A stretch of DNA of 63,096 bases, filler included, from Aduncisulcus paluster (lineage: Eukaryota): NCBI GenBank assembly GCA_024181965.1. It is 13 parts of 13 records of this genome, joined end to end, with 100 filler letters (N's around TTAATTAATTAA, not from the genome) between each part and the next. Parts side by side here need not be neighbours in the genome. Positions count along the whole stretch, not along the records: positions 16,342 to 27,758 come from BQXS01000190.1; 12 more parts are not named here. One strand, 5' to 3'. The notes below the pieces were generated by a model, which was not told where the DNA came from, made no database searches, and was given only the letters and a program-made list of their open reading frames with translations. This document shows, piece by piece, positions 3,610 to 55,918 of this stretch. Every line of letters begins with the position of its first letter. Position 1 is the stretch's first letter. Position numbers and translations under genes: made by a program.

Positions 3610-3709
3610 NNNNNNNNNNNNNNNNNNNNNNNNNNNNNNNNNNNNNNNNNNNNTTAATTAATTAANNNNNNNNNNNNNNNNNNNNNNNNNNNNNNNNNNN
3701 NNNNNNNNN

Positions 3710-12126: not shown

Positions 12127-12226
12127 NNNNNNNNNNNNNNNNNNNNNNNNNNNNNNNNNNNNNNNNNNNNTTAATTAATTAANNNNNNNNNNNNNNNNNN
12201 NNNNNNNNNNNNNNNNNNNNNNNNNN

Positions 12227-15200
12227 TATCACTATCTCTAGCATTATTACTATCACTCTCATCATGGTCATTGTCCACTGACCCTGTCAATTGCTTTCTT
12301 TCTTTCACGGCCTCTTTGTTTCCATGTTCTTCCTCATCCTCAAAGATACTCAATGAACATCGACATCCTTCGTCTCATGTCACCTGCTCTTTAAAGCCCT
12401 TGAAGCTCTTGAAGTCTTTAAATCAGAGCAATCGTGATGGTAATGCACATCGTTTGTTCTTGCTCTTCACTCGGATGCTCTTCTTCATGGTTATATGTTC
12501 ATCAATATGCATGGTCTCTGCTGAAGTTGAAATATCCATCCCCGATGCAAACCTTCGAGCTGCTGTGTGTTCTGCTCTCGTTAGTTCTATTGGGCTTCCT
12601 GCTAATTGTCCAGTCATAACCAATATTGACATGCTGTCGTTGACTTCCCTCAGTGCGTCCTCTGTTGACACCTTCGAAGGATTGTCTTATGCTACGGACC
12701 TTGCATCACTCACCATCGATGGCACATCCACATCTGACCTTGAGATTGGCTCGACAGAGATTGGGTATCTTCCAACGTCATCCTTATCCACATTGTATCT
12801 GCAGAACATTGCATTATCTGAGGATGTGTCTTTATCCACATTCACAATGTTAACAAAGCTTGATCTGAGAAATACTGGATTGACAGACTCTCATAGTGTT
12901 CTTGGTTCTTTGAGTGGTGTTGAGGAGCAACTTGTTGAGTTGACCTTGCGAGACAATATTATCTCAGATATCTCTGCTCTATCCGGAATGGCGAATCTGA
13001 CGTATTTGCATCTGTACAACAATCAAATATCTGATGTGAATCCATTGGAAAGTTTGGTGGAATTGACATTTTTACACCTTGGCATCAATAATATATCCTC
13101 AATCTCTGCTCTATCTGGAATGATAAACTTAACGACTCTCCATCTATATTCAAATAGTATCTCAGATGTTTCACCTCTTGTCAACATCACTAATCTCACT
13201 GACCTTAGATTGTCATCCAACACTATCTCTGATATCTCTGCTCTATCTGGAATGTCAAAGATGTCAATTCTATATCTAGGCAGTAACAATATTTCGGATA
13301 TTTCTGATCTTTCTGAGATGTCTGAGATCAATACTTTGGCTCTTCATGCAAACAACATTTCAAATATATCTGCTCTATCTGGAATGAATGATATGAATAT
13401 TCTATACCTTTATTCAAATCAGATATCTGACATTTCCGATTTATCTGGAATGGTGAATCTAACCTATTTGTATCTGTACAACAATCAAATATCTGATGTG
13501 AGTCCATTGGAAAATTTGGTGAATCTGACATATTTACACCTTGCCGGCAATAATATATCCTCAATCTCTGTTCTATCAGGAATGATAAATTTAACGACTC
13601 TATATATAAATTCAAACAATATTTCAGACATTACTGCCCTCTCTGGAATGGGAGATCTTGTGACTTTATACCTCTATTACAACAATATTTCTGAAATTTC
13701 TGATCTTTCTGAGATGTCTGAGATCAATACTTTGGCTCTTCATGCAAACAACATTTCAAATATATCTGCTCTATCTGGAATGAATGATATGAATATTCTA
13801 TACCTTTATTCAAATCAGATATCTGACATTTCCGATTTATCTGGAATGGTGAATCTAACCTATTTGTATCTGTACAACAATCAAATATCTGATGTGAGTC
13901 CATTGGAAAATTTGGTGAATCTGACATATTTACACCTTGCCGGCAATAATATATCCTCAATCTCTGTTCTATCAGGAATGATAAATTTAACGACTCTATA
14001 TATAAATTCAAACAATATTTCAGACATTACTGCCCTCTCTGGAATGGGAGATCTTGTGACTTTATACCTCTATTACAACAATATTTCGGATATTTCTGAT
14101 CTTTCTGAGATGTCTGAGATCAATACTTTGGCTCTTCATGCAAACAACATTTCAAATATATCTGCTCTATCTGGAATGAATGATATGAATATTCTATACC
14201 TTTATTCAAATCAGATATCTGACATTTCCGATTTATCTGGAATGGTGAATCTAACCTATTTGTATCTGTACAACAATCAAATATCTGATGTGAGTCCATT
14301 GGAAAATTTGGTGAATCTGACATATTTACACCTTGCCGGCAATAATATATCCTCAATCTCTGCTCTATCTGGAATGTCAAAGATGTCAATTCTATATCTA
14401 GGCAGTAACAATATTTCGGATATTTCTGATCTTTCTGAGATGTCTGAGATCAATACTTTGGCTCTTCATGCAAACAACATCTCTGATATCTCTGCTCTAT
14501 CTGGAATGTCAAAGATGTCAATTCTATATCTAGGCAGTAACAATATTTCGGATATTTCTGATCTTTCTGAGATGTCTGAGATCAATACTTTGGCTCTTCA
14601 TGCAAACAACATTTCAAATATATCTGCTCTATCTGGAATGAATGATATGAATATTCTATACCTTTATTCAAATCAGATATCTGACATTTCCGATTTATCT
14701 GGAATGGTGAATCTAACCTATTTGTATCTGTACAACAATCAAATATCTGATGTGAGTCCATTGGAAAATTTGGTGAATCTGACATATTTACACCTTGCCG
14801 GCAATAATATATCCTCAATCTCTGTTCTATCAGGAATGATAAATTTAACGACTCTATATATAAATTCAAACAATATTTCAGACATTACTGCCCTCTCTGG
14901 AATGGGAGATCTTGTGACTTTATACCTCTATTACAACAATATTTCTGAAATTACTTCTCTGTCTGACCTGACAGAATTGACATCTTTATCACTTCATTCG
15001 AACCAAATAACTGATATTTCTGACTTGAGTTCTCTAACAAAGCTAACATATTTGCATTTGTACAACAATCAAATATCTGATGTGAGTCCATTGGAAAATT
15101 TGGTGGAATTGACAACCTTGGAACTTGGATCTAATCAGATTACTTCCATTGATTCTTTGTCAAGCTTGGATGATTTAGTATCTCTGTATCTCTATGAAAA

Positions 15201-16241
15201 TAACATCTCAGATATCTCTGCTCTATCAGGAATGATAAACTTAACGACTCTACATCTATATTCAAACAGTATTTCAGACATTACTGCCCTCTCTGGAATG
15301 GGAGATCTTGTGACTTTATACCTCTATTACAACAATATTTCTGAAATTACTCCTCTGTCTGACCTGACAGAATTGACAGCTTTATCACTTCATTCAAACC
15401 AAATATCTGATATTTCTGACTTGAGTTCTCTAACAAAGCTAACATATTTGCATCTTTCCAGCAATAATATATCCTCGATCTCTGCTCTATCTGGAATGAA
15501 TGATATGAATATTCTCTACCTTTATTCAAATCAGATATCTGATATTTCCGATTTATCCGGAATGGTGAATCTAACCTATTTGCATTTGTACAACAATCAA
15601 ATAGAATCCATTGAATCGTTATCAGGCATGACTGCTCTAAATACCCTTTTTCTTTCCAACAACTCTATCTCAGATATTTCCTCACTAAGCTCTTTGATCT
15701 CTATTTCATATTTGGAGCAGAACAACAATAATATTTCAGATCTTTCTCCTTTACAGAATTTAGATAAATTGACCCACCTTTGTCTTTTAGGAAATCAAAT
15801 AACGTCCACTGAATATTTATCTGGATTAACCAATTTACAGTATTTATCTCTTGCATACAATTCTTTGGAATCTATCGAATATCTATCAAATCTGTCAAAT
15901 CTAACAGTTCTGTTACTTTATGGCACTGGCATTGAAGATATCTCTGCTTTATCTGGAATGTATTTATTAGAGTATTTGCAACTGGAAGGAAATTATATTA
16001 CTGATATAACTCCTTTGAAGTTCCTAACGAAATTAAATTGGCTACATCTTGGATCAAATCGGATTGAATCAGTTGAACCATTATCTTACATTACTGAACA
16101 GTTGAATTATCTATATCTTTACAATAACAATATCTCAGATATCTCTTACCTTTCACAAATGACAGGGTTGTATCATTTATTTTTATATAACAATAACATC
16201 TCGAATATCTCTGCTCTATCAGGAATGATAAACTTAACGAC
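12227..16241 (+). CDS. very long secreted/surface LRR protein (~50 22-aa internalin/SDS22-like repeats), 3' partial; likely start Met near 12475
   Basis: Hydrophobic signal-like segment MLFFMVICSSICMVSA, cap IPDANLRAAVC, then LxxLxLxxNxIxDIxxLxx repeats up to the contig end. Confidence 0.92.
13240..14955 (+). repeat. array of near-identical 66-bp LRR cassettes with 396-bp and 462-bp higher-order periods
   Basis: Identical antisense ORFs at 13328-13615, 13724-14011 and 14582-14869, and a partial one at 14120-14389. Cassette order is A B C D E F G B C D E F G B C D E A B A B C D E F G. Confidence 0.93.
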
Positions 16242-16580
16242 NNNNNNNNNNNNNNNNNNNNNNNNNNNNNNNNNNNNNNNNNNNNTTAATTAATTAANNN
16301 NNNNNNNNNNNNNNNNNNNNNNNNNNNNNNNNNNNNNNNNNTATGGGAAGAGTATGAGCAGCTGATCTATAGTTATCCCTAATAAATGCATCCGCTGAAA
16401 AAGGATGAGGGCCTCATCAAAGTACTATTCTCGTCAAAATAAATAACATTTTCTAACGTATTTCTACTTTCATCATATTTTTAAAATGTTTTAGTAATTC
16501 TATATAGTTTTTTATATTGTATTCAAGCTGTTATTCTGTTTTGTTTGAACTTTGGTTTGTTTCCCGATTCGTAACTCAAA

Positions 16581-18246
16581 ATGACTTTGTTAATTAAAAA
16601 TGGTCACGTGTTCACATTAAATGATAAAGATGAAGATTTTGACAACGGTGCTGTTTTTATTGGAGAGAGTGGTGCTATTGTTGAACTTGGTCCTTCTGAG
16701 GAGATGTGTGCCAAATATGAGAAAGAAGCCGATGAAGTACTTGATGCTAAAGGTGGTATGATTGCTCCCGCCTTCATTTGTGCCCATGGTCATTTCTATG
16801 GTGTGTATTCTCGTGGTATGGATATGAAAGATGATCCTCCAAGTAACTTCCTTGAAGTTCTCGAACGTTTATGGTGGAGGTTAGATCGTGGCCTCGACGA
16901 GAGTACTAATCGTCACTCCACTTTGATTTGTCTCGTTGATGCTATCCGTTCTGGAACTACCACCATCTTCGACCATCATGCCTCCCCATACTGCACTCCT
17001 GGGTCTCTCGATACCATTGAGAAGGCCTGTAAAGACGCTGGAGTTCGTGCTTCCTTATGTTATGAGATATCTGAGAGAAACGGTGAAGAGGAATTCATCC
17101 GGGAGATTGATGAGAATATCAGATATGCCCTCAAACTCAAAGAAGAGATGAAAGATGAGAAAATGCCCCAATTCGCTGCTACAGTTGGTCTTCATTCTTG
17201 TCTTACCCTTTCTGACGATGGTCTCAAAACCATTCGTGAGAAGGTCACCGAGAGTGGTCTTAAGGACATTGGTTTCCACGTTCATGTTGGAGAAGGTCCT
17301 GACGATGAGATTGTTTCCATGAAGAAATTTGGAAAACGTTCCATTGAGCGTCTTGATGCCGCTGGAATGCTCAATCCCCATTCCATCTGTTGTCATTGTG
17401 TTGCCATCGATGACAAAGAACGTGATCTCGTGAAGAAAGCTGACGCTGTTATCGTGCACAACCCTTCAAGTAACATGAACAATGGTGTTGGTGCCCTTGA
17501 TGTTCCCAAGACTCTCGACGCTGGTGTGTTGGCAGGTCTCGGAACTGATGGAATTGGCCTTGACATGATTAAGGAATACTACTTCGCTTACATGCTCCAA
17601 AAACTTGCCAAGGGCCATCCCAGTGCAGGATCCATGGAGGCATTCAACCTCTTGTTCAAGAACAACTCAAAGATCGCCTCTCGTCACTTCGGGTATAAGA
17701 TTGGAGTGTTGGAGCCAGGAGCAGTTGGAGATGTCATTGTGCTTGATTACTACACTCCCACTTCATTCCACGGTGGCAACTTGCCATGGCATGTCATGTT
17801 CGGAATGGGCTCAAGAAATGTCAGCTCAACCATCTCAAGNNNNNNNNNNNNNNNNNNNNGCCAAGGGCCATCCCAGTGCAGGATCCATGGAGGCATTCAA
17901 CCTCTTGTTCAAGAACAACTCAAAGATCGCCTCTCGTCACTTCGGGTATAAGATTGGAGTGTTGGAGCCAGGAGCAGTTGGAGATGTCATTGTGCTTGAT
18001 TACTACACTCCCACTTCATTCCACGGTGGCAACTTGCCATGGCATGTCATGTTCGGAATGGGCTCAAGAAATGTCAGCTCAACCATCTCAAGGGGTAAAG
18101 TCCTCATGAGAGAGCGTGAACTCGTGACTCTTGATGAGAAAAAGATCATGGCTGAGGCTAAGGCTGAGCACATGAAGGTCTGGGAAAAGGTCTGGGAGAT
18201 TGCTGAGAAAGAAAAGAAGGAGAGGAAGGAAAAGGAAGAAAAGTAG
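16581..18246 (+). CDS. ssnA: SsnA-like metal-dependent amidohydrolase (bacterial type); the apparent break is an assembly overlap (17607-17839 = 17860-18092)
   Basis: Motifs CAHGHFYG, PPSNFLEVLERLWWRLDR, GTTTIFDHHASP, GLHS, HVHVGEG, HCV, HNPSSNMNNGVG and GLGTDG. Intronless. Removing the overlap gives one continuous ORF. Confidence 0.88.
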
Positions 18247-18428
18247 GATGTGCTCATTATCGCGATAATTCAATTTTCTGAGATTATTTTTACTTTTTCT
18301 TGATAGGTTCAAACGTTTAGAAGCTAAAATTAGATTAGAATTTCTAAAAACAAAAAAAACTTGATATTATTATCAATGATTAAAATCTATCCCTGATCAA
18401 GATTACTCAATAAACAAACATTTTGAAG

Positions 18429-20846
18429 TTATCCCCCATTCTTCTTGCACCATTTCACCTTTTTCTGATATTTGAGAAGTTGGGGAGCAATCGAAGGAAC
18501 CGAGGAGAATCTGTGAATTAGTTTTGACCAGTATATGATTCCCCAAACATTTTTACCTCCTTCTTCCTTCTTTTTCTTTATCATCTCAAACCAACTATCA
18601 AGAAGACCATCTTTAGTACAATCATGGACTTCAATGGCTTGGGAAGGAATACAACTCAAGTTACCAAAGAAACATAAAGAACGAGCGATAACATCTGCAT
18701 CAGACGTAATATCTTTGGAAGAAGAATCTTTCAGCACATCCAAGACAGGATGAAACACAAACCAGAGTTGTGAGGAACGATCTTTATGAGGGTGAATGTT
18801 GTCCTTATCAAGAGTGAAATTCTTCAAGATATTTACCCACAAGTAAAATGACTTCTTATCAGGATATTTCTTCATCCAAGGTAAGATGTGAGGAAGAAGA
18901 AGGGATAAGAGGGAGTCTTTGGTTGGATCATCTTTGGCAAATGCAATATTTCGACACGTATCAAGGATATCTGCAATGAAAGAGTCGCTAAAAATAAATC
19001 TCAGACCAAGACTTAATATCTGCGAGAGAAGTGAAGAGATTTGGAGGTAAATTTTTGGACAAATGGGCAATACGTAAGCAGTAGTAATATGAAGAATCGT
19101 AAACAATGAGATTGTGATAGGACTAACTCCAGAATCTGTTGTTCCACTTTCTTCTTCCTTCATCCCCAAAACAGATACAACTCGAACCATTGAAGGTAAG
19201 AAACAGTCAATCATATTCTTAAGGGAAGCACTATCGAGGTTGATCTTAAGAGTATTATCACCATGTGTAATGAAATGCCTTGTGAACAAAGAAAAACATT
19301 CAAAACAAAGAGTGAAAAGATTTTGATGGGATGTTATTGAAGAGGGAGAAGAAGTATATTCATCAAAGATAGCTTTAATACGAGATTGAGATTCTTCATA
19401 GAGGGATTTAACGGCAGATTGGGAGGAAGATCTTTGAATTGAAACAATTAAAGCTCTCAAATCCATCTCTTTTCCCTTTAGAATAGTTTCAATCTTCTTC
19501 TTCTCTTCTTTCTTCTTCAACTTGAGTTTTAAAGCCTCAATTTCTTTCTTCAAGTCTTCTTCAGAGTCTTCTTCTTTGTCGTCCCCAATGCTTGTTGTGG
19601 ATTCATGATGATAACTCGTACTATCATCCCAACCTTTCGATATCTTAACACTTTCAAGAGAATCTCCACTTCCTTCACTTTCCTCGATGCATCCAGGATC
19701 GCCTTTATGCTTGGCAAGCTGAACCCTCACAATATCCTCAATGGATGGACATTTCCACCCTTCTCCAATCTTTGGAAGAAGAGATTTAATGGATTGAACT
19801 TTCTTGCAGGCTTCATGAACACTCATACGTTCATCAATGTCAACTTTTGTCAATCCTTCGAATATTTCATTCAGACAGGAATAAACAGGTTTGAACTTAC
19901 CATCTTCAATGGTCTTGAGGGTTTTGAAAAGAGAAGTTTTAGAGAGTTTTGGACCCAACCCTTTTGAAATGAGTTCTAAAAGCCCCTTAACATATTCAGC
20001 AGGAGAATCAATCCATTGTAATACTGGATTCTGAACGAAAGGATCTTGCCCTTTGAACATGGCGAGAATAGTAAGACCGAGAGAGTAAGCATCACTCTCT
20101 TGGCTTTGGTCTCCTTGAAGAGCTTCACATGAGTTGTAAACAAGTGTCCCACAGATAAAGCGTTTGGGTTTAGTTTTGTCATCTTCAGATTTGGATTTCT
20201 TTGAAGAAGATACAAAGCTCGTACACGATATGGAAGAGGAGATGGAGTCTTGGATCTGAGCAAGACCAAGATCAGAAAGAACAATGATACATTTCAGAGA
20301 ATCGGGATCAACACGAACAAGGAAGTTATCAGGCTTAATGTCTCGGTGAACAAGGCTTGGCTTGGCTTTAAACACTTCAGCAAGACACTCGATCATTCCA
20401 ACACATAAAGCACTCACTCTTAGGGGATCAAGAGTCATGGGATCAAAGTGAGTGGAGTCAGAAGATATGCTTGAAGATCCATGCTTTCCCCAACTCCTAG
20501 CAAACTCCTTCACACTACCTCCAAGACAAAACTCCATACAAAACCCAAACACACCTTTGTAATCCTCATCAAGAAGGTCAAGAATGTACATGGGGCGAGG
20601 AATACGATTGAAACATTTGGGATTCATGAATAGTTCTACTTGGATATCAAACTCATCACGACATGAGTCAACGACTTTCTCATCCCCGACTCGGATCAAT
20701 TTTTTCAGAACACATGGTTGAGAAACACCGTCAATACACACAATATAAACCATTCCAAACCCGCCTTGGCCACAAATACACAAGGACTCAATAGCGGAAG
20801 GAGAGACGATAGTCTTGCTATCTTTTTTGCGTATATGTCCATACAT
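18429..20846 (-). CDS. Ser/Thr protein kinase with coiled coil and helical (ARM/HEAT-like) C-terminal region
   Basis: Motifs GQGGFG, VLKK, MEFC, HRDIKPDN, DLG, GTLVYNSCE and SDAYSLG. The C-terminal ~350 aa are Leu-rich and helical. Confidence 0.9.
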   Translation of the reverse strand: MYGHIRKKDSKTIVSPSAIESLCICGQGGFGMVYIVCIDGVSQPCVLKKLIRVGDEKVVDSCRDEFDIQVELFMNPKCFNRIPRPMYILDLLDEDYKGVFGFCMEFCLGGSVKEFARSWGKHGSSSISSDSTHFDPMTLDPLRVSALCVGMIECLAEVFKAKPSLVHRDIKPDNFLVRVDPDSLKCIIVLSDLGLAQIQDSISSSISCTSFVSSSKKSKSEDDKTKPKRFICGTLVYNSCEALQGDQSQESDAYSLGLTILAMFKGQDPFVQNPVLQWIDSPAEYVKGLLELISKGLGPKLSKTSLFKTLKTIEDGKFKPVYSCLNEIFEGLTKVDIDERMSVHEACKKVQSIKSLLPKIGEGWKCPSIEDIVRVQLAKHKGDPGCIEESEGSGDSLESVKISKGWDDSTSYHHESTTSIGDDKEEDSEEDLKKEIEALKLKLKKKEEKKKIETILKGKEMDLRALIVSIQRSSSQSAVKSLYEESQSRIKAIFDEYTSSPSSITSHQNLFTLCFECFSLFTRHFITHGDNTLKINLDSASLKNMIDCFLPSMVRVVSVLGMKEEESGTTDSGVSPITISLFTILHITTAYVLPICPKIYLQISSLLSQILSLGLRFIFSDSFIADILDTCRNIAFAKDDPTKDSLLSLLLPHILPWMKKYPDKKSFYLWVNILKNFTLDKDNIHPHKDRSSQLWFVFHPVLDVLKDSSSKDITSDADVIARSLCFFGNLSCIPSQAIEVHDCTKDGLLDSWFEMIKKKKEEGGKNVWGIIYWSKLIHRFSSVPSIAPQLLKYQKKVKWCKKNGG

Positions 20847-21310
20847 CTAAAAAAATTGGGAAGAAACGGGAGATAGACGGCAAAGTGATAATGGGAAAAC
20901 ATGACACATAAATATGGATGAAAGAAAAGAAAAAAATTTAAAAAAAAAAGGTAAACATACTTAAAGTCCTTCAACTTCAATATTATTTCAGGTGTAACAA
21001 AAACGTTGAGCATTTTTTTCTATTAGCAATTCTTTCTAATTTCCTGGGAAAATGTTATAAAATGACGATAAATAGTAGAATTCAATTTTTTTATCTGTAA
21101 TATTTTGGAATTGTCTGTTGTTGACACGATATATCACTTTCAAATGCTAAAATGCTTTAAAATGGCATGCCACTAAACTTCTATGTGACAAAAATATTTT
21201 TCTTCAGGCTCTTTAAGCTCAATTTATTACTGAATCAGAGCAAGGAATTACTCTAAGATTCAGAGACATCACCCTGTTACAATGAATCTTCAGTTCAAAA
21301 TACTGAGAAT

Positions 21311-24122
21311 TTATTTTTGAATTCGAATTGGTTGAGGCTTTTTCAACCCTTCTTCAGCGATGCTTTTCAGTGTTTCCAGCTCAGAGGCGAGGAATATCAT
21401 TTCTTCATGAAGGAAGGTGTTCTCAGGTGTGGCGTAAAATGATGATCGATGCTTATGAAACTGATGTGAACAACAATCCTGATCTTCCGGAAGAGGTCCT
21501 CTTCCACCCAGTATAGGGAAAGAGGCGGTCAAAGATGACTCACGGGCCCGTTTGTTCTCGAAAACAGCTTCATATCCTCGTGTAATGGCACCAATGCCCG
21601 TGAAAGTAAGGGTCGGAAATTGTGGTTTATATCCTCGATCGTCAATATATGCAGGTGAGCGGTGAGGTGAGTGAGAAGAATGTGAGGAAGAGGATGAAGG
21701 GGATGGATGTATGTAAGATGATGTTGATCTTTTCTTTGGCAATAACAGACGGATGCTCCCTCCACCATGAGTTTGGGTGGGAGACAAGTCACCACGTTCA
21801 ATGAGATCTTCAACTTCTTCGAGAGTACGACGAGTCTTTGGAATATGTCTATTTTTAGAATACCTAGAAAAAGCAGACAGAGCTGATATCACAGAAGGTG
21901 CTGACACGGCCCCAAATTTATGCTCCAAGCAATTGCATGAGTAACCATAGATCCCACCATCAGATCCCAGCCCAGAATAATCTCCATAACAGCCACTGTG
22001 GCGATCAGTTACGCCTACAATCACTCCTCCACCAACTCCTCTTCTTCCTGCACGTGGAGTCCCACCGCCAGGATAACACCCGACTCCCATTGAGGAATGG
22101 GGGTGAGGTTGAGAGAGAATACCTCCTTTGACAAGCGATGACGATAATTGCGCAAAACCACTATTTTTAGTATCTTTGCGTGACCTCGTCCATTTTTCAA
22201 ATACCACCCGTGAAATACAATTTATCCGCATGGCAGGCAAAGAACACTCAGCAGCACTGTCACGGAGTTGGAAAGCAGCGAACACTGCCATAGAACTGAA
22301 TGTAGAGTGAAGAGGAAGAGGTTTGGGAGATAACATTGAGTTGTCAGGGATAATATACTCCTCTCCCTCACTCGAGGGGTCTTCAAAACATCTATCCTTT
22401 TCTCTCTCCCGCGAATGAGTATAATACTTACTATTTTTAGTATCATGAGTGTTATTTGAGAAAGATGAGGATGATGTGGACGCTATTGAAGGCTGTGTAT
22501 GATTGGGATTCGATTGGTGATGAAACACCACGGCACTGCTCCTAGAAACATTCTTAAGATCGTTATTCTTTGCTTGTCCAACCCCTAAATACGTTGACAA
22601 TGAGTGTTTAAGGTGAATCGGGACCAGGGAAGAAGAAGAGGCCGAAGAGGAGGATGGGGAAGTGACGGAAGAAGCAAAGAGCATTGGAGGAGGAATATAT
22701 TTATGTTCTAAAGTTTTATGGGAAATACTATGTGATGCAGAGCCTCCAACAAGGGACGAAGAAGAGGAGGAGGACGAGGATGATGAGGAAGAGGTTGAAA
22801 ANNNNNNNNNNNNNNNNNNNNTGGTGATGAAACACCACGGCACTGCTCCTAGAAACATTCTTAAGATCGTTATTCTTTGCTTGTCCAACCCCTAAATACG
22901 GTGACAATGAGTGTTTAAGGTGAATCGGGACCAGGGAAGAAGAAGAGGCCGAAGAGGAGGATGGGGAAGTGACGGAAGAAGCAAAGAGCATTGGAGGAGG
23001 AATATATTTATGTTCTAAAGTTTTATGGGAAATACTATGTGATGCAGAGCCTCCAACAAGGGACGAAGAAGAGGAGGAGGACGAGGATGATGAGGAAGAG
23101 GTTGAAAAGGAAGAATCGAGAGCACTTTCAAGCTTCTGACGCTGTTGATGAAGTATTTGATGGTGAATAACGCCACGAGTATAGTCATATATTGGATGAG
23201 AAAAGAATGAAGAGAAGGCAGAGAAATATTTCGATTCAAGGAGGAACTTGTATCGTATTGGTTGCTTTTTCTTTGTATTCTTGGGAGTTGGAGGGAGAAT
23301 CAATGCTCCACTTTCACTATGATCATGACTAGAGCCAGAACTGGTTGTAGCCGATTGTTTCGACGATTCCCGGTGGTACTGCAAGGGAGATGAACCATGC
23401 CGCCGTTTCATGCCGAAAGAGAGCCGCCCACCCTCAGAACTGAGAGATACTGTTGGATGAGGGCAACTATCTCCTATTGAATGTGTTTGATGCTTGTGAC
23501 CACTCGCAATGCTCGAAATCTCTTCTGTCACACTACTGGAGAAGCGGTCAAACAAGAATAATTCAGGCATAACTGTTTGCATGGCAGTTCTAACCTTTCC
23601 TATCCTTTCTCTCTCGACATCGGGATTATATCTGGCTTCGGCAAAGGCACCGAGCTGAACAAGTCGTTTAGAGAGAAGATTGAGTTTATCATCAGCAGGA
23701 CCATAAGAATTGCGTTTTGACTTTGCATCAATATTCGATTCTTTAACAATAAGGGGTTCTCTAAAGGCAAAGAGACGAGCAGCGACACGATAAAATCGAT
23801 CCTTCAATTCGTATATTTCACGCCTTCTAAACGGAAATTTCTGTTGAATAACAGTAAAATTACAAGAATATTTTTCGGCTAAATTAAATAACTCGTCAGT
23901 TTCTTCTTTGGACCAGAATCTAGTTCGAAATAAATGATAATACTCAATGTCAGTATAACGTGGGAATGTAAGGGCCAATCCAGGGGGAATATGTGCCGGT
24001 GCACTATCTTTACGATGTACACATAGAATATTTAGACAGGCTGGATGTGGGCTGACAGTCCAAGTGGCGCCGAGTCCAGACTCTTTGGAAGATATATTAG
24101 ATAATAAAAATGGGGTGGACAT
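21311..24122 (-). CDS. DMAP1/Swc4-like SANT-domain protein with a long low-complexity tail; split by assembly overlap (22515-22801 ~ 22822-23108)
   Basis: YTDIEYYHLF...WSKEETDELFNLAEKYSCNFTVIQQKF...YELKDRFYRV and YNPDVERER match the Swc4/DMAP1 SANT region. Confidence 0.78.
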
Positions 24123-24383
24123 CAAACTTAAATGTATTAAATATATAAATTTCCCAACTAATTCTATATAGGGCCCCAAACCCGCAAGAAATCCTCCATT
24201 CTTTTGAAAATTTAAAATCCATCAGCAGCAGGTGATATGATTAGCATTGAGAGATATAATAACATAAAAACTAATAATAGAATATAGGTAAATTTCTAGA
24301 AAAATCCAATTCCAAATTTTCACTCTTTATTCAGAAGATTATCTCGATTTTCAATTTCATCATGTTTGATAACACTTCAAATC

Positions 24384-25502
24384 ATGAGTATGATTAAACT
24401 TCTTGAAACAACCCTTGAGAATGCGAAAAAGGTTGAGAAACAGAAGACTATTGATAAGCTTCTTGTAGAAAAAGAAAAATATGAATCTTGTATCGAATTA
24501 AAACTAGAAAGGGTTCAACAACTTCAAAAATTATATAACCATGAATGTAGAATGTTAATAGAAGCTTGTGAGGATTCTTCTGGGTCTTCTGGTCTTGAAG
24601 GCTTGGAGTGTGATCTGAAACAGAGTGAGAAATTAAAACACTCGATGCAGATGAATTGCTTTGCTAGACTTGCATCAATTTTTTATATTTGTCCCGGATC
24701 AACGCGTAAACCAGAATGGTGGACAGGTACTGTAATCAGTTATGATGATGTCATTTCTACCACTTCAGGGGCATCTTTACCGACAGACAAATATTCATTT
24801 GATAATTTTCAAGCATTGGGAGCATCTATATGCGATAAAACTCCGAGATATTGCGGTCGAGTACCACATTATCCAGGAGTTCTCCTTCTTTCACATGACA
24901 ATGTTGAGGAATCAAATGCTGCCATTTATTTTGCTGCAAAGCTCATCATGTATACAGCAAGTTATCTTTCTATTCCTCTTCCGCACGATATTCTTTTATG
25001 CGGAAATCGTTCATTTATTTCCGATTCTATGGGATGTTGGTATCCTTTGTTCATTTTGAAAGGCGAAAGTAAGGTTTCTTTAAGTTCAGATGGGAGTTCT
25101 TTGCGAAGTGCTGTCTCTCCTTACGAAGAAGTTAATCCGAAGGCCACATCTTCCTCAGATGGCAAATCAGATTCTTCGCGGGTAATCATGGACTCTTTCT
25201 CTCGATTTGCACACCATCCTCATAGTTCCATTCCCACATCCTCCACTCATTCGTCACATTCAAGATCTCACTCTTCACACAGTGTTCATTCTGGTTCAGA
25301 TGCTGGATATACACGGAAAAAAGACGGCAAGGGATTACACTCTTTTTCAATTCCACTCAGTTCCATGGGATTATTGCTGTTATCCAGAAATCTTGATACC
25401 ATCATGATCCAGCGTCACCTCGAGACCCGTGCATATGATGGAATAATTGGAGCCCTTGGAAGATTATTCATGTGCGATTTATTGATGGCAAAGGGAGTTT
25501 AA
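24384..25502 (+). CDS. ATG14/UVRAG(Vps38)-like coiled-coil protein
   Basis: N-terminal coiled coil, then NAAIYFAAKLIMYTASYLSIPLPHDILLCGNRSFI...YPLF and GLLLLSRNL, resembling the ATG14/UVRAG conserved blocks. Confidence 0.65.
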   Translation: MSMIKLLETTLENAKKVEKQKTIDKLLVEKEKYESCIELKLERVQQLQKLYNHECRMLIEACEDSSGSSGLEGLECDLKQSEKLKHSMQMNCFARLASIFYICPGSTRKPEWWTGTVISYDDVISTTSGASLPTDKYSFDNFQALGASICDKTPRYCGRVPHYPGVLLLSHDNVEESNAAIYFAAKLIMYTASYLSIPLPHDILLCGNRSFISDSMGCWYPLFILKGESKVSLSSDGSSLRSAVSPYEEVNPKATSSSDGKSDSSRVIMDSFSRFAHHPHSSIPTSSTHSSHSRSHSSHSVHSGSDAGYTRKKDGKGLHSFSIPLSSMGLLLLSRNLDTIMIQRHLETRAYDGIIGALGRLFMCDLLMAKGV

Positions 25503-25581
25503 CACATATTATTAATAATTTATTAATCATCTTATTAAAACATAACTTTTACTGATAGAGACTATCACCGTAGTAAACAGA

Positions 25582-27018
25582 TTATTTCTTTTTCCTACTC
25601 TTCTTTCCCTTCTTCTTTTTCTGTTTCAATGGGTGTTTAGCATTTATCTTTTTCACTCTTAATTCGATAGCTGCTTGACATTCTCGATGTACCAAAGACA
25701 TGCCCATTTTGCCTCCAAAAATAGGAACATCGTGCTCAGAAAATAGTTTCTCACAGATCCCACAGACTCGAGGATTGCATTTCTTATCGGTGTGGAAAGC
25801 TTTGTGCCCAACAACAACGAATGTTTCTCCTAATTTGAGATGACAATGGGCACAGGTCATTGGTCGGTAAACAGGGATTTCATACGGACAACCGACAGTT
25901 TTAACGGTATCATATGTCGTCGTAAACCGGGTTGGAGCGTGTTCCATGATAACTTTGGAAGTGTCACCGAGGGAAGCGCCAAGCTCATCAACATCTTCGA
26001 CTTCAGCACCAGCTTTAATTGAGGAGAGAAGAGATGCGAGTTCTGTCTTGGGAATTTCACGAGTGAGCGAAATTGTCTTGTCTTTTCCTTTCTTTTTGGG
26101 TCTAAATTCTGTACAGGCACAAATGACTGCAAATATTTCACTGCAAGGTGAAGAAGTATCTGTCCACCGAGGCAGTCCTGAGGATGTCATGTTAAGCAAA
26201 ACAGGAGCTTCTTGTTCCTCTTGGGCCTCATCTCCTTGCCCATCAGAGAGCTCAATGACTTCAGGCTCTTCCTCCTCTTCCGCAGGTTGTTCTTCTGCAT
26301 CGTAGGAGTAATATTCATCCTCATATTCATATTCATATTCCTTAATAGGGGGTTTTGATTGTGGTTTGGCCTGAGATTTTGCCACGGGAGTATCTTGGGA
26401 ATCCTTGACAGAGCCTTTCTTTGAATCCGATTGTTCAGCTTCTTCTTCCTCTTTTTCCTCAAATAAACGCTTGGGAACCCCCGATTTGGTTTCGTGACCA
26501 TATGATATCAAAGCAATTCCTAAGTTTCGCATCCGAGAATTGAAAAAATTTCCTCTATCCTTCATTCCAACATCCAAATCCAACAGAATCCGAAAAATCA
26601 GTTCCTGTGGTGAAGTTACACCACGAATGACTGTGCACCACGGTGCTCCAACATATTCCCCGTATTGTTGAAGGGTCTTAGGTCCAAGATCTTTTACCAG
26701 ATCAGCAATTCTTGTTTCAGGCGTTATTGTTTCCAATATATCAAAACCAATTTTATAAGCAATCATGGAAAGTGTTGAATCAATTGAAACTCCTGAAGCT
26801 GATGAAAAGAACTCCAAAGTTCTGTGATTGTCAGAAACTGTCTTATCCATTTCAGAAACATATTCATAATCCACAGCATCCTGATCGGGCATATATTTCT
26901 TTATCTCTTCAAGATGTTTCATTAAGAGAGTTGGTTTAGAACGGACATCATTGAAAAAAGAAATGAACTCTTCAATAAATTCAGTTTCTTTGATTCTAGT
27001 TCCACCTAATGTATCCAT
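25582..27018 (-). CDS. CAP/SCP-like domain plus C-terminal LIM-type zinc finger protein
   Basis: FNDVRSKP...YGEYVG...SPQELIFRILLD...DRGNFFNSRMRNLGIA is a degenerate CAP-like region. CAHC-x16-H...C...CGIC...HREC is LIM-like. Acidic linker and Lys-rich tail. Confidence 0.6.
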   Translation of the reverse strand: MDTLGGTRIKETEFIEEFISFFNDVRSKPTLLMKHLEEIKKYMPDQDAVDYEYVSEMDKTVSDNHRTLEFFSSASGVSIDSTLSMIAYKIGFDILETITPETRIADLVKDLGPKTLQQYGEYVGAPWCTVIRGVTSPQELIFRILLDLDVGMKDRGNFFNSRMRNLGIALISYGHETKSGVPKRLFEEKEEEEAEQSDSKKGSVKDSQDTPVAKSQAKPQSKPPIKEYEYEYEDEYYSYDAEEQPAEEEEEPEVIELSDGQGDEAQEEQEAPVLLNMTSSGLPRWTDTSSPCSEIFAVICACTEFRPKKKGKDKTISLTREIPKTELASLLSSIKAGAEVEDVDELGASLGDTSKVIMEHAPTRFTTTYDTVKTVGCPYEIPVYRPMTCAHCHLKLGETFVVVGHKAFHTDKKCNPRVCGICEKLFSEHDVPIFGGKMGMSLVHRECQAAIELRVKKINAKHPLKQKKKKGKKSRKKK

Positions 27019-27858
27019 AAGAATATATGGGATTTATAAATAAATGTATTTCAAAGAAGGATCAGAAGAAAAACGCTCACATTTCGTTTCCATTTTTAAA
27101 TGTGCACTGATATTGCTATAGCGCACTTTTACAAACAGATATCTATATTTAATCATCATTCCTATAAATATTTTTCGAATGGATACACCAGATCTGATTA
27201 TTTTGTCAAAATTCTCCGTAAAGCGGATGCATTTATTAGGGAAGGGGAGATACTAAAAAGACAGAAATAAAAAGAGAAAAGAAAGGCATTGAAGGATATT
27301 AAAGGGTATATTAGGTGGTAACAGACTGACTGCAGTACGATAAAGTTTCAGACAAGAAGGATACTGATTGTAGTGTATTCAGCATAGAGACGAAGACACC
27401 GAAAGGCAAACTCTACCAAGTAAACAATGTAGTGAAAAAACTAGTGAACAAAAGTTGCACATAGTGTGTAACTAAAGAACCGAGGAGTAGGGAGGAATAG
27501 GTGTACGATAATCAATAGAAATTTCTGAAAAAGGCAACAGCAAACATATATTGAGAAGATTTAGCAAGACAAGGCATCAAGATGCTACTCTCTAGAGCCA
27601 TTAAAATAAGCTAAGTCATTTTAGAAAGGAGTCGAGAGTGAATAAGAAGCAATGAAACCAAGTATTGATTAAAAATTGGGTATTAGAGAATGTAGGTGTA
27701 GTTCACTTCAGTATAATGGAGAATATCAAAATATGCTGATGGATCGAAATGGGTAACTNNNNNNNNNNNNNNNNNNNNNNNNNNNNNNNNNNNNNNNNNN
27801 NNTTAATTAATTAANNNNNNNNNNNNNNNNNNNNNNNNNNNNNNNNNNNNNNNNNNNN

Positions 27859-28225: not shown

Positions 28226-28875
28226 ATTTGTTAAATATCAATATCAATATTTACACAAAAAAAGTGGGAAATGAACTCTATAACCCAACACACAGAAATC
28301 AGCCGATTATTCACATCATTATTAGCAAGTTTACACATGTAAAATTCAGAATAGAATTTGAATATTTTGTTAAATGTCTTGGCGATCCTGGAAAGAGTTT
28401 TTGGAACCTTCAGAGTGAACTATCAAAGAATTATGTGAGAGTACATGTTTTAAATCGATATGAATTGTGCTATCAGATTATATATCTACAACATAACCGA
28501 AATAAAATGATCTATTCCTGAGATAGCAAAAAAATGGATCCATGGGAACAGAAAAACATGAAAACATAATTTATTATTCTATTATAAAACCAAGTCCCAA
28601 TGTTATTTCAAATTTTTAAGCTCATTTTCAGCGATAACTCTTTGTTCGGCAGCTATAAGAACATAGATTTGTTTAACGTAGCTCTATCCAGTATATTAGG
28701 AATTTGGAAATATACTCTATGATAATTATCATTCTTTATTTGATTTGATATAATTTTAATAATGCCTCAATAATTGATGATCAATTTGTTAAATCAAATC
28801 GAATTGATCTTTCCAGTCCTTCATTGGAGTTATTTTTCTTATTTTTTTGCTATCAATTACAATATAATACTGATA

Positions 28876-29368
28876 ATGTCTGCACCTGCAGTTGGAATTG
28901 ATTTGGGTACAACATATTCTTGTGTTGCCGCCTTCGAAAATGATCGTGTTGAGATCATTGCTAACAGTCAAGGAAACAAAACCACTCCTTCATATGTTGC
29001 CTTCACTGATGAGGAGCGTCTTATTGGAGATGCTGCCAAGAGTCAAGCTGCTATGAACCCTGCTAATACCGTCTTTGATGCCAAACGTCTCATTGGTCGT
29101 AAGTTCTCCGATTCTGAGGTTCAACGTGATATCCTTCACTGGCCCTTCAAGGTTGTCTGCCGTGATGGTGACAAGCCTTTCATTGAGGTTAAACACAAAT
29201 CTGAGACCAAGGTCTTCTCTCCTGAGCAGATCTCCTCCATGGTTCTTGGTCGTATGCGTGATGTTGCTGCCGATTACCTTGGAAAGAAGGTTGAAAAGGC
29301 TGTTGTTACTGTTCCCGCTTACTTCAACGATTCTCAGCGTCAAGCTACCAAGGATGCTGGAACTATCT

Positions 29369-29402
<34 letters not shown>

Positions 29403-29457
29403 CACTGCTGCCGCTATTGCTTACGGTCTCGACAAGAAGACTGAAGGTGAGAAGAAT
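28876..29457 (+). CDS. HSP70: cytosolic HSP70, 3' partial
   Basis: Motifs [49 protein letters not shown] and [14 protein letters not shown]. No signal peptide and strong codon bias. Confidence 0.97.
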
Positions 29458-29557
29458 NNNNNNNNNNNNNNNNNNNNNNNNNNNNNNNNNNNNNNNNNNN
29501 NTTAATTAATTAANNNNNNNNNNNNNNNNNNNNNNNNNNNNNNNNNNNNNNNNNNNN

Positions 29558-31065
29558 CTGCTCCAGGAAAGCAATGTTTCTATTGTAGAGAGTTTGGACA
29601 CAGGAAGTTTGAGTGTCCCAAACTCCCAGAAGAAGAAAAAGCCGCGATGAGGGCAAAGTATGCTGCCTCTAAGAGGCGCTCCTCAAGACCGAACGTCTAT
29701 GATAATCCAATGAAGGCTAGTGCCATAAATAAATTCTTCGAAGGTTTTTATCCGAACAATTTTGTCAAAATGGATTGGCAAGAGCCCATACCAGGATCTC
29801 AATTGAGAATAAAGACGGACAACCCGTCACAGTCATAGCACTGTTGGATAGTGGAGCCAACATCAATCTGTCTCCAGGAAAGCTGCAGAGAGGTACAAGT
29901 TACTTCCAGCTGATGTGAAAGAAGAAGAGATGGAACATGTAATCCAAGGTGTTGCATCTACATCTCTGAAACCAAGATGTGAAATACACTTGGTTACATC
30001 CATCCAAAGAATGGATGAAGAAGTACCAAGAAGAAAGACAATTCCTTTCTGGGTATGTGATGAGTTAACCACCGGAGATGAAATCATCCTGGGGTACAAG
30101 GCAGCAATAGCCTTGGGAGCCATGCAGTTCATGGTGCCAATAGAAGGGAGCACCATGGAGAAGGAAGAGCCAGAAGATGGCAAGGTAGAAGAAGACCAGG
30201 TCGGTGAGTGGCTGCAACAGGCCGAAGATTTGGCGAAAGAGTTCAAATGTGCTGCATTGATCAGCACGAGACCGACAAAGGTGGCTGCAAGTGCCAAAGG
30301 TATGACTAGAGAACAACTTGGTCAACAGATAAAGGAGACATTGAACAGTAAACATCAATATTGTTACTCATTACTCCTTGACATTCACTGCAGATATGCC
30401 CATGTGTTTGATTTGAGTGAATTACCTCCAGCTAGATACCCAGCATTCGGGATCAAGCTGATAGAGGGTGAAAAGGTGCCAAAGAGTCACCTAAGACAGA
30501 TACCGTGGTCGAGAGGACCAATGCTCCAAGCAGAGCTGGACCGACTCAAGAAGTTGGGTACGATCGAAGAGATCAAACATGAGACACGATATGTCAGTGC
30601 TATTGTGTTGGTCCCTAAAGGGGATGGAGTGAGATTGTGTGTGGATTATAGGCCACTGAATAAGGCAACCATGACATTGCATAGAGCTGTCGCCAGAGTC
30701 GACGAAGTTGTACGCATGTTACACGGAAAGAAATTGTTCATCATACTGGACTTAAAATCTGGATATCACCAAGTTGAGATCGAAGAAAGTAGCAAGGAGT
30801 ACACTACATTCATAACGAAGTTCGGAACGTTTCAATATAAACGGATGCCGTTTGGGTTAAAGAATGCTCCTGCATACTTCACAATGATGCTAGATGATAT
30901 TTTAGCAGGACTGGTCAGAGTGAACTGCCTGATCTATATGGATGATATCATAGTATTTGGAGCAACGCTTCAAGAGTTGATTGCCAACTACCTAAAGGTG
31001 TTGGATAGGTTGTCAAAGGCCAACATGAAAGTAAACGTGCTGAAAATGCAGCTCGTATGTGAAGA
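29558..31065 (+). mobile_element. Ty3/gypsy LTR retrotransposon internal fragment (gag zinc knuckle - aspartic protease - RT)
   Basis: CFYCREFGHRKFEC (CX2CX4HX4C). ALLDSGANINL in the -1 frame, with another 1-nt shift at ~29870. RT motifs LCVDYRPLN, LDLKSGYHQV, RMPFGLKNAP and YMDD. Confidence 0.95.
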
Positions 31066-31165
31066 NNNNNNNNNNNNNNNNNNNNNNNNNNNNNNNNNNN
31101 NNNNNNNNNTTAATTAATTAANNNNNNNNNNNNNNNNNNNNNNNNNNNNNNNNNNNNNNNNNNNN

Positions 31166-32938: not shown

Positions 32939-33038
32939 NNNNNNNNNNNNNNNNNNNNNNNNNNNNNNNNNNNNNNNNNNNNTTAATTAATTAANNNNNN
33001 NNNNNNNNNNNNNNNNNNNNNNNNNNNNNNNNNNNNNN

Positions 33039-36202: not shown

Positions 36203-36302
36203 NNNNNNNNNNNNNNNNNNNNNNNNNNNNNNNNNNNNNNNNNNNNTTAATTAATTAANNNNNNNNNNNNNNNNNNNNNNNNNNNNNNNNNNNNNNNNNN
36301 NN

Positions 36303-52615: not shown

Positions 52616-52715
52616 NNNNNNNNNNNNNNNNNNNNNNNNNNNNNNNNNNNNNNNNNNNNTTAATTAATTAANNNNNNNNNNNNNNNNNNNNNNNNNNNNN
52701 NNNNNNNNNNNNNNN

Positions 52716-53347
52716 GAGTCAGCTTCTTGGAGATGTATTTTATAACTCTGTCTCCTCCTTCACTTGGTTGAGTCAACACTCCTCCAAGGCCAATTGTAGA
52801 GGCATCAGTGTGGAGGACTAAGGGCAACGAGTAATCAACATGACACAGCAATGGGGACGAAGTCAAGTGTTTCTTGATCTTGTTGTGAGCTTCGTCACAC
52901 CTTTCATCCCATATAAACTCCTTATCCTTTGCCATCAGGTCTGTCAAAGGGGCAGTAATAGTTGCAAAGTCTGGGATAAACTTCCTGAAAAAGTTAGCAC
53001 TCCCCATGAAAGATCGAACGTCTTTAACATTCTTTGGGGCAGGTTGCTCGAGCAGCTGTTCGATTCTACTGGGGTCGACAGTGATTCCATCCTTGTTCAC
53101 TAACACTCCAAGGAAATCAGTTTCTTCGACACCCAACTTACACTTAGAGGGTTTAAGTCTCAATCCAAACTTCTTTAAGCATTCGAAGGTGCTTCTCAGG
53201 TTGTCAATGAAAGTTTCGTGGGTACCGTAAACAAGGAGATCATCGACAAAGACAACGCACTTCCCACGAAGTACAGGTTCCAAACAACACTGCATTGCAT
53301 ACTGGAAGTGGTTTGGGGCATTACGTAGCCCGAACGGCATACGCTTC
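52716..53347 (-). mobile_element. Ty3/gypsy pol fragment (RT C-half, connection, RNase H), interrupted by a nested LTR
   Basis: Motifs KRMPFGLRNAP, FVDDLLV, LKPSKC, FLG, VRSFMGSANFFRKFIPDFATITAPLTDL and LHTDASTIGLGGVLTQ. Confidence 0.95.
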
Positions 53348-54230: not shown

Positions 54231-54330
54231 NNNNNNNNNNNNNNNNNNNNNNNNNNNNNNNNNNNNNNNNNNNNTTAATTAATTAANNNNNNNNNNNNNN
54301 NNNNNNNNNNNNNNNNNNNNNNNNNNNNNN

Positions 54331-55051: not shown

Positions 55052-55918
55052 TTTAAGAAATTAACAGTATAAAAGCAGGGAAATATATAAAATTTTAGAT
55101 GTTAGCACAATCTAAAGGGAAATCATCCAAAAAATAGGCTTGAGTATTCGATTATATGAAAAGTCTATAATCAAGACATTTACAGACTGGCACTGGAGAA
55201 TTAGAAAGAATATTGAAATCAAGTGTACCATATTTATCGTGTAAATGACATTATATTCCTATAAAAACTTTAAATGGTTACAAATTCGGTTCTTTTTTTT
55301 TTTGACTCGGAGGCTAAATAAAAATTCGGTTATTTGTGTCAACCGACTTGATAATCAAGTTAAATCAACTCAAGTTAAAATGTTGTGGATTAATTGATCG
55401 CTATCAGCACAAACCCCTTTATTTGTAATTTATTGCTGTTTCGGAAAAAAGTGTCGTTTTCTCACTTCAAAATTGGAAAATAAATATAAAATAAAATAAA
55501 AAAAAATTGGTTTAAACAGGCTATTATTGTATTTTTTCAATCAAAACATGTGAATATTTCTTTATGTTGGATGTTAAAAAAATCACATTGGTCTTTCTTC
55601 GGAGTTCATGAACCAATTGTGATGGATGCGGGTTAAAATTAATTTCTTGATAAAGAATAATTCAAGGGATACCGGGGGTCATAGTGAAATGACTGAATTA
55701 ATGGTGGCTGATGTTAAAGATTTGCAGAGGGCCATTTTTGTAAAAGCATCCACATATCTAAAGCAATTCCACTTTGATCCACCTACTAGTGCTCCTCCAC
55801 CAACTATTGAATGGCATCNNNNNNNNNNNNNNNNNNNNNNNNNNNNNNNNNNNNNNNNNNNNTTAATTAATTAANNNNNNNNNNNNNNNNNNNNNNNNNN
55901 NNNNNNNNNNNNNNNNNN

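Follow-up and report, generated by a model that had tools for sequence, protein, structure and literature searches.

The stretch analysed here (the window) comprises 63,096 nucleotides of DNA from Aduncisulcus paluster, a free-living anaerobic protist of the Fornicata (GCA_024181965.1). It consists of 13 joined records separated by 12 linkers, each composed of 44 N, TTAATTAATTAA and 44 N, and linkage claims are valid only inside one segment because the linkers join separate records. The record at 16342-27758 (BQXS01000190.1, 11,417 bp) contains a gene already annotated in GenBank as "protein ssnA, putative", whose product is a predicted SsnA-type amidohydrolase. The gene and its immediate surroundings are organized as follows:

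16342-16580, plus strand: 5' flank of ssnA, from the first base of the record to the start codon
16581-17839, plus strand: ssnA coding sequence, part 1, codons 1-419 plus 2 nt (NF005540; PF01979, 124.9 bits)
17840-17859, no strand: 20-N scaffold gap between contigs with overlapping ends
17860-18092, plus strand: artefactual second copy of 17607-17839, 233 bp, identical in sequence
18093-18246, plus strand: ssnA coding sequence, part 2, with the Lys/Glu-rich tail and the stop codon TAG at 18244-18246
18247-18428, no strand: spacer of 182 bp between the convergent ssnA and kinase genes

The ATG at 16581 opens the ssnA frame, which runs into the gap at 17840-17859. The sequences 17607-17839 and 17860-18092 are identical, with 0 mismatches over 233 bp; once the duplicate is collapsed, 16581-17839 and 18093-18246 join in frame to 1413 nt encoding 470 amino acid residues (aa). 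The duplication is an assembly artefact, because the SsnA profile positions 333-407 are matched twice, by the sequence on both sides of the gap, because the derived repeat occurs in none of 14 aligned SsnA homologues, because the same structure recurs at three of the six 20-N gaps in the window, and because one unbroken 431-nt contig from the DNA run X1 leads from 18245 back across 18093/18092 and 17860 and on for another 45 nt. A genuine tandem repeat would presumably have broken the assembly graph at that point. The three gaps flanked by exact duplicates, with the suffix on one side equal to the prefix on the other, lie at 17840 (233 bp), 34401 (229 bp) and 37386 (196 bp). Such duplicated flanks are unmerged contig overlaps, and gene models that span them in the A. 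paluster assembly are likely to contain false repeats or frameshifts. Two nearly identical ssnA copies have been deposited for this organism, differing in one residue, the second located on another contig. Both models (GKT28215.1 and GKT25764.1, 528 aa each) contain a false internal repeat of 58 residues because the gene predictor bridged the gap. In practical terms, both deposited ssnA protein models are wrong by this repeat, and the unmerged overlaps from which it stems recur in the assembly. In the DNA run X1, the word depth over the 3' end of ssnA was 2568, compared with about 1240-1300 over the spacer and the unique parts of the kinase gene; the doubling would fit two gene copies with different 3' flanks, contig depth being no measure of copy number.

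The gene is intron-free, a single exon with an open frame and a colinear profile match, as stated in a preliminary description of this DNA. The interval 16581-18246 (+), described there as an SsnA-type gene, indeed holds one by its match above the NF005540 equivalog cut-off, but it is not one open reading frame (ORF), as it contains the gap and the 233-bp duplicate.

Judged by its sequence, the A. paluster protein is a true SsnA-family amidohydrolase and not a generic eukaryotic deaminase or a deaminase of the AtzA/GuaD/MtaD type. The unaltered 419-aa piece scored 456.4 bits with the NCBIfam SsnA equivalog NF005540 (cut-off 444) over profile positions 2-407 of 444, and the 3' piece (17860-18243) matched positions 333-442, the two pieces together spanning the profile from end to end. 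TIGR03314 yielded 437.9 bits on the 419-aa piece alone, just below its cut-off of 455.5, and the deposited model P0270 reached 538.2 (NF005540) and 519.2 bits (TIGR03314), scores slightly raised by its repeated segment. Among the rival NCBIfam families, with cut-offs of 294-991, no score of the 419-aa query exceeded 174 bits: the best, NF004701, gave 173.7 bits against a cut-off of 609, the MTA/SAH deaminase 109 against 779 and the guanine deaminase 96.3 against 351. All 10 of the other eukaryotic homologues passed both SsnA cut-offs (482.6-555.6 against 444 and 458.4-538.0 against 455.5). Residues H69, H71, H233, H235, E238, H272 and D323 were invariant across 15 sequences and identical in the aligned SsnA of E. 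coli; we take them to be the metal and catalytic positions of the amidohydrolases. The full-length SsnA-like motifs noted beforehand are therefore present, with the profile covered throughout and all seven active-site positions kept, and the comparison by hidden Markov models proposed at that stage separates SsnA clearly from the AtzA/GuaD/MtaD families. About 17 residues past the profile end form a Lys/Glu-rich C-terminal tail, and an N-terminal extension is lacking. In another protein (P0186, 955 aa) a complete SsnA domain (residues 504-917) follows on a fused 4Fe-4S ferredoxin-type region, an arrangement that fits a functional link between SsnA and YgfK, an iron-sulfur reductase.

The genes that place ssnA in host DNA, together with the gene used for codon comparison, are the following:

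18429-20846, minus strand: host protein kinase gene (PF00069), on the same contig as the 3' end of ssnA
22822-24122, minus strand: DMAP1-type SANT/Myb gene (PF16282 SANT_DAMP1_like, 56.5 bits), on the same record, across a 20-N gap
28777-29457: HSP70 gene, on a record other than that of ssnA

An ORF of no assigned family lies between the kinase and the DMAP1-SANT gene. At E <= 1e-5 the kinase had 84 homologous proteins, one of them the window's own, and all 83 others (82 NCBI entries and one entry from an older transcriptome) came from A. paluster. The kinase family is very large, and hundreds of DNA-run contigs lie over parts of this gene, as a multi-copy family predicts. In relative synonymous codon usage (RSCU), ssnA correlated at 0.72 with 17 pooled genes of the window and at 0.81 with HSP70; by the same measure, each of the 17 genes correlated at 0.53-0.88 with the pool of the others, and prokaryotic ssnA genes from five loci of metagenome-assembled genomes (four Chloroflexota, one Cloacimonadota) at -0.26 to 0.57. 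The DNA-run contigs 17860-18245 and 18216-18603 overlap and thereby bridge the ssnA stop codon, the spacer and the 3' end of the kinase gene; an X2 contig (18158-18613) likewise spans the spacer. The 3' part of ssnA is also held by X2 contigs and by one 256-nt contig of X3, which stems from another study and year. Clade-mates of the protein are encoded on large contigs in Carpediemonas (1.03 Mb), two 'Eukaryota sp.' (3.95 and 3.72 Mb) and Anaeramoeba (0.65 Mb). A contaminant or a chimera is very unlikely as the source of ssnA because the kinase family is host-only, the codons are host-like, contigs bridge the two genes and clade-mates reside on megabase-scale contigs. We regard ssnA as very probably a real host gene of lateral origin. 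The eukaryotic scaffold and the HSP70-like codon usage reported earlier are thus borne out by the kinase and DMAP1-SANT genes on ssnA's own record and by the RSCU correlation, HSP70 itself lying elsewhere, while the bridging contigs contradict the chimeric join that had been considered.

The best matches of A. paluster SsnA were proteins of other anaerobic protists with 45-52% identity, namely Ergobibamus (52%), Barthelona (49%), the 'Eukaryota sp.' isolates TZLM1-RC and GEM-RC1 (47-48%), Carpediemonas (47%), and Stygiella, Pygsuia, Mastigella, Anaeramoeba and Cantina (45-47%). The two isolates are taken to be Skoliomonas, following metamonad papers. Besides A. paluster, at least ten anaerobic protists carry the gene, with six of the homologues originating from transcriptome assemblies, and among the matches seen all eukaryotic carriers are anaerobes or microaerophiles. 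A search of about 186,000 reference prokaryote genomes gave 575 relatives, the best of them 43% identical.

In a FastTree reconstruction of 263 rows (leaving out P0001, P0270-P0274 and sequences outside 380-560 aa), all 11 named eukaryotes fell within one subtree of 28 leaves. A careful IQ-TREE reconstruction (LG+C20+F+G4 with posterior mean site frequencies) used 58 hand-picked rows, from which long branches and near-duplicates had been dropped, and E. coli SsnA as outgroup. It recovered two groups. Group A (support 100/98), which unites Fornicata with the barthelonid/skoliomonad lineage, comprised Aduncisulcus, Carpediemonas with P0003, Barthelona, Ergobibamus with P0012 and the two isolates; group B (97/96) comprised P0007, P0008, P0014 and P0018, Pygsuia, Anaeramoeba, Cantina, Stygiella with P0085, and Mastigella with four others. 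In a further FastTree reconstruction of 112 rows, a eukaryote-rich clade of 23 rows (support 94) contained none of the 83 named prokaryote loci included. A quick IQ-TREE reconstruction of 63 rows with named prokaryotes gave the eukaryote-rich clade a support of 94; an enclosing set supported at 98 added the Thermoplasmatota pair P0011/P0053, the Anaerolinea sequence L003, P0031 and P0109, and next outward stood L049 (Thermoplasmatota) with L023 and L024 (Thermoproteota), plus two Bacillota. Throughout, A. paluster SsnA was nested among SsnA-named proteins; the rows contained no non-SsnA outgroup. The sequences P0007, P0008, P0014 and P0018 had no named relative above 62% identity, the best named ones being Anaerolineae, and the relatives of P0008 in reference prokaryote genomes were 41-53% identical. 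The phylogeny called for in the preliminary description thus places A. paluster SsnA among prokaryotic and protist SsnAs, and lateral origin is the best reading because of this nesting among prokaryotic SsnAs. The transfer then assumed needs qualification in two respects. On the sequences compared, it is neither recent nor private to A. paluster, because ten other anaerobic protists carry clade-mates, and a 'bacterial' origin is not established because the nearest named prokaryotes mix archaea with Chloroflexota.

The biochemical role of SsnA has become apparent from two studies of 2025 on gut bacteria, in which the oxygen-independent reductive urate pathway of E. coli and Clostridium was reconstituted (PMC12507026; bioRxiv 10.1101/2025.04.24.650524). 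In this pathway (XdhD, YgfK/UacX, SsnA, HyuA, YgeW/UacY, YgeY, YgeX and YqeA), XdhD or XdhAC reduces urate to 2,8-dioxopurine, dearomatisation of the ring falls to YgfK (in C. difficile, to UacX), and YgfK together with SsnA and NAD(P)H converts 2,8-dioxopurine to ureidomethyl-hydantoin, while ATP is gained by YgeW with the carbamate kinase YqeA (PMC12507026; bioRxiv 10.1101/2025.04.24.650524). SsnA is termed the most identifiable marker of the pathway, and the formation of ureidomethyl-hydantoin is known only for the E. coli enzyme (PMC12507026). A carbamate kinase has been published for the SsnA carriers Ergobibamus, Carpediemonas and Pygsuia (PMC5052871). Anaerobic ciliates are described as possessing a carbamate kinase fused to a carbamoyltransferase, acquired laterally (PMC13198582).

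The pathway context is retained around prokaryotic SsnAs that stand closer to the protist clade than the E. coli protein does. In a Cloacimonadota locus (L004), ssnA stands with genes for M20, PALP, molybdenum-hydroxylase and ornithine transcarbamylase-fold proteins; in an Anaerolineaceae locus (L001), a YgfK-like gene (Fer4_20 and Pyr_redox_2) lies directly 5' of ssnA and F420 biosynthesis genes are present; in an Anaerolineales locus (L002), a luciferase-like gene adjoins ssnA.

We propose that an anaerobic eukaryote took up ssnA from a prokaryote long ago and that the gene was then inherited vertically within Fornicata plus the barthelonids and skoliomonads. Other anaerobic protists would have acquired it anew, with at least two acquisitions in total, or it would have had a single origin followed by transfer from protist to protist. 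Extrapolating from the E. coli enzyme, A. paluster SsnA would act on 2,8-dioxopurine after its enzymatic reduction, opening the six-membered ring by hydrolysis and yielding ureidomethyl-hydantoin, and this step would constitute the committed ring cleavage of reductive purine/urate breakdown. The end products of the route would be pyruvate, ammonia and carbamoyl phosphate, the latter giving ATP through carbamate kinase, and a bacterivorous anaerobe devoid of oxidative phosphorylation would thereby convert the purines of its prey to ATP. Taken as a whole, a laterally acquired SsnA with vertical descent in the fornicates and a function in reductive purine/urate ring cleavage is probably the correct explanation. 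That the protein catalyses the same reaction as E. coli SsnA is likewise somewhat favoured. A complete reductive urate pathway in A. paluster is possible, at slightly less than an even chance. That free-living anaerobic eukaryotes of five major lineages (Metamonada, Discoba, Obazoa, Amoebozoa and Stramenopiles) run a prokaryote-derived 2,8-dioxopurine fermentation, whose genes would have spread as an 'anaerobic toolkit' from a single ancient donor near Thermoplasmatota/Chloroflexota, seems rather unlikely.

Several observations weigh against this explanation. As to function, the identity of the substrate is extrapolated because the one SsnA characterised so far, that of E. coli, shares no more than 37% identity with the A. 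paluster protein and forms a long branch (2.8 changes per column); the PDB matches included no SsnA structure, the best being an MTA/SAH deaminase with 102.9 bits. None of the 15 other proteins of the E. coli cluster matched the 63-kb window in tblastn searches at E <= 0.01, and an upstream reductase (YgfK, UacX or the F420 luciferase type) is likewise absent from the window. The M20 gene at 61741-63003 (-) was ruled out as YgeY, being of PepD type (TIGR01893, 367.7 bits, cut-off 343.75). The RNA nature of the X2 and X3 contigs is a guess, so they allow no reading as ssnA expression. As to descent, the branch joining groups A and B is weak in the careful reconstruction (83/30), and 11-12 sequences without a named source lie inside the eukaryote-rich clade, among them P0007, P0008, P0014 and P0018. 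If these four are prokaryotic, at least two transfers are needed; in an approximately unbiased test, a single clade of group A and the eukaryote-bearing part of group B without these four was not rejected, but p was close to the limit (0.068).

Of the alternatives, the one that survives best accepts ssnA as real and laterally acquired and assigns to its product, acting by itself or with different partners, another cyclic amide or amidine as substrate, for instance in nucleobase salvage or detoxification, with no reductive urate pathway. The first step of that pathway requires a molybdenum hydroxylase, and many anaerobic protists are reported to be without molybdenum enzymes. No partner gene was found within the window, eukaryotic genes are unclustered so that their context is of no help, the identity to E. 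coli SsnA is low, and the related TRZ/ATZ, MtaD and GuaD families accept many substrates. Against these points, the curated cut-off of the SsnA equivalog is passed by each of the 11 eukaryotic sequences, the prokaryotic relatives nearer than E. coli retain the pathway context, and no second function of SsnA appears in the accessible text of the two pathway papers (PMC12507026; bioRxiv 10.1101/2025.04.24.650524). We consider another substrate unlikely, though a serious candidate, and retain ring cleavage in reductive purine breakdown as the preferred function.

Descent of the gene from an archaeal ancestor, instead of a later lateral acquisition, is improbable. It would explain why a single clade (94 in the quick and 83/30 in the careful reconstruction) unites all 11 named eukaryotes, drawn from five major lineages, and why archaea are among the nearest named prokaryotes (Thermoplasmatota P0011, with L049 and the Thermoproteota L023 and L024 nearby). 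However, only anaerobes carry SsnA among the matches seen, and many independent losses would be required; the internal order of the second protist group departs from the eukaryote tree, archaea and Chloroflexota (L003) occur together in the closest prokaryotic set, and Asgard sequences are absent from the best 80 of the 575 genome relatives. An origin of ssnA in a food bacterium of the culture, with mis-assembly having attached it to protist sequence, is hardly credible: the culture was not axenic, the published assembly is fragmented (25,863 contigs, N50 4.6 kb; PMC9933649) and a gap lies inside ssnA itself, but this gap is an unmerged 233-base identical overlap within the gene, the 3' end, spacer and kinase share one contig bridged by DNA-run contigs, the codons are used as in the host, identity reaches only 43% in the best reference prokaryote genome against 45-52% in other protists, clade-mates lie on megabase eukaryotic contigs, and a second A. 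paluster copy occupies another contig.

The presence of the gene was already annotated; what is new is that the marker enzyme of a pathway described in 2025 from bacteria is conserved across anaerobic protists. This hints that the reductive urate route may also exist in eukaryotes. No paper on a eukaryotic SsnA or pathway was found in the literature within reach, which excluded subscription papers and preprint supplements. Protists and a eukaryotic version of the route go unmentioned in the main text of either pathway paper, one reference title with 'eukaryot' apart. Six pathway terms had 0 occurrences in the supplements of PMC11316075 (one file unreadable), and 'amidohydrolase' is absent from the main text of PMC13198582. 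Conservation of SsnA in eleven anaerobic protists raises the concrete question whether eukaryotes ferment purines for ATP, and SsnA adds to the set of genes patchily common to unrelated anaerobic eukaryotes.

The remaining records of the window contain clearly eukaryotic genes, encoding a glycogen debranching enzyme, HSP70, D123, SF3A2, WD40 proteins, a DUF4200 protein and a retroelement reverse transcriptase. Further features of the window, and the boundaries of its records, are:

12271-16293, plus strand: leucine-rich-repeat protein of more than 1,250 aa with near-identical units of 22 residues (LRR_4, 630 bits), truncated by a record end
29930-31065, plus strand, and 52716-53340, minus strand: retroelement reverse transcriptase/RNase H fragments, each cut by a record end
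61741-63003, minus strand: PepD-type aminoacyl-histidine dipeptidase, a bacterial-type M20 enzyme, running past the window end and possibly another lateral acquisition
1846-1945, 3610-3709, 12127-12226, 16242-16341, 27759-27858 and 29458-29557: first six 100-base linkers
31066-31165, 32939-33038, 36203-36302, 52616-52715, 54231-54330 and 55819-55918: last six 100-base linkers
17840, 22802, 34401, 37386, 48795 and 57011: positions of the six 20-N gaps

Among known systems, the reference is SsnA of E. coli K-12 (b2879). Both proteins pass NF005540 and TIGR03314, agree in every metal and catalytic position at 37% identity over 366 aa, and are of similar length without additional domains. In contrast to its E. 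coli counterpart, the A. paluster gene is nuclear and monocistronic, follows the codon usage of its host and is without ygfK, xdhD or hyuA as neighbours, and its product has about 17 more Lys/Glu-rich residues at the C-terminus; E. coli SsnA is a distant, long-branch outgroup in the tree.

The SsnAs of the other protists, with 45-52% identity, belong to the same clade and all lie above the SsnA cut-offs. They are deposited as 'putative selenium metabolism protein SsnA' in Carpediemonas membranifera, 'aminohydrolase ssna-related' in Anaeramoeba flamelloides and 'amidohydrolase' in Stygiella incarcerata, those of Ergobibamus, Barthelona, Pygsuia, Mastigella and Cantina being transcriptome entries. 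Aduncisulcus differs by its two deposited copies, one residue apart and both mis-modelled as 528 aa, and shares the charged C-terminal tail only with Ergobibamus. The S. incarcerata protein (P0009) is extended at the N-terminus by about 25 residues that the other SsnAs lack and that may direct it to the mitochondrion-related organelle.

The SsnAs of Chloroflexota and Thermoplasmatota are the nearest named prokaryotic proteins by tree (P0011, L003), and those of Anaerolineae the nearest by similarity to the in-clade sequence P0008 (57-62%). They differ from the Aduncisulcus protein in being encoded in operons beside a YgfK-like or luciferase-like reductase and share at most 43% identity with it. 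The TRZ/ATZ, MtaD, GuaD and 8-oxoguanine deaminase families belong to the same amidohydrolase superfamily (PF01979); in contrast to SsnA, these enzymes (e.g. PDB: 4f0r and 7ww2) are deaminases or dechlorinases and do not open rings, and PDB matches to A. paluster SsnA reached 45-103 bits. The arginine deiminase pathway of metamonads offers an analogy only, as a laterally acquired, prokaryote-type nitrogen catabolism that gains ATP by ending in carbamate kinase (PMC5052871). It employs other enzymes and another substrate and, unlike the urate route in protists, has been established experimentally.

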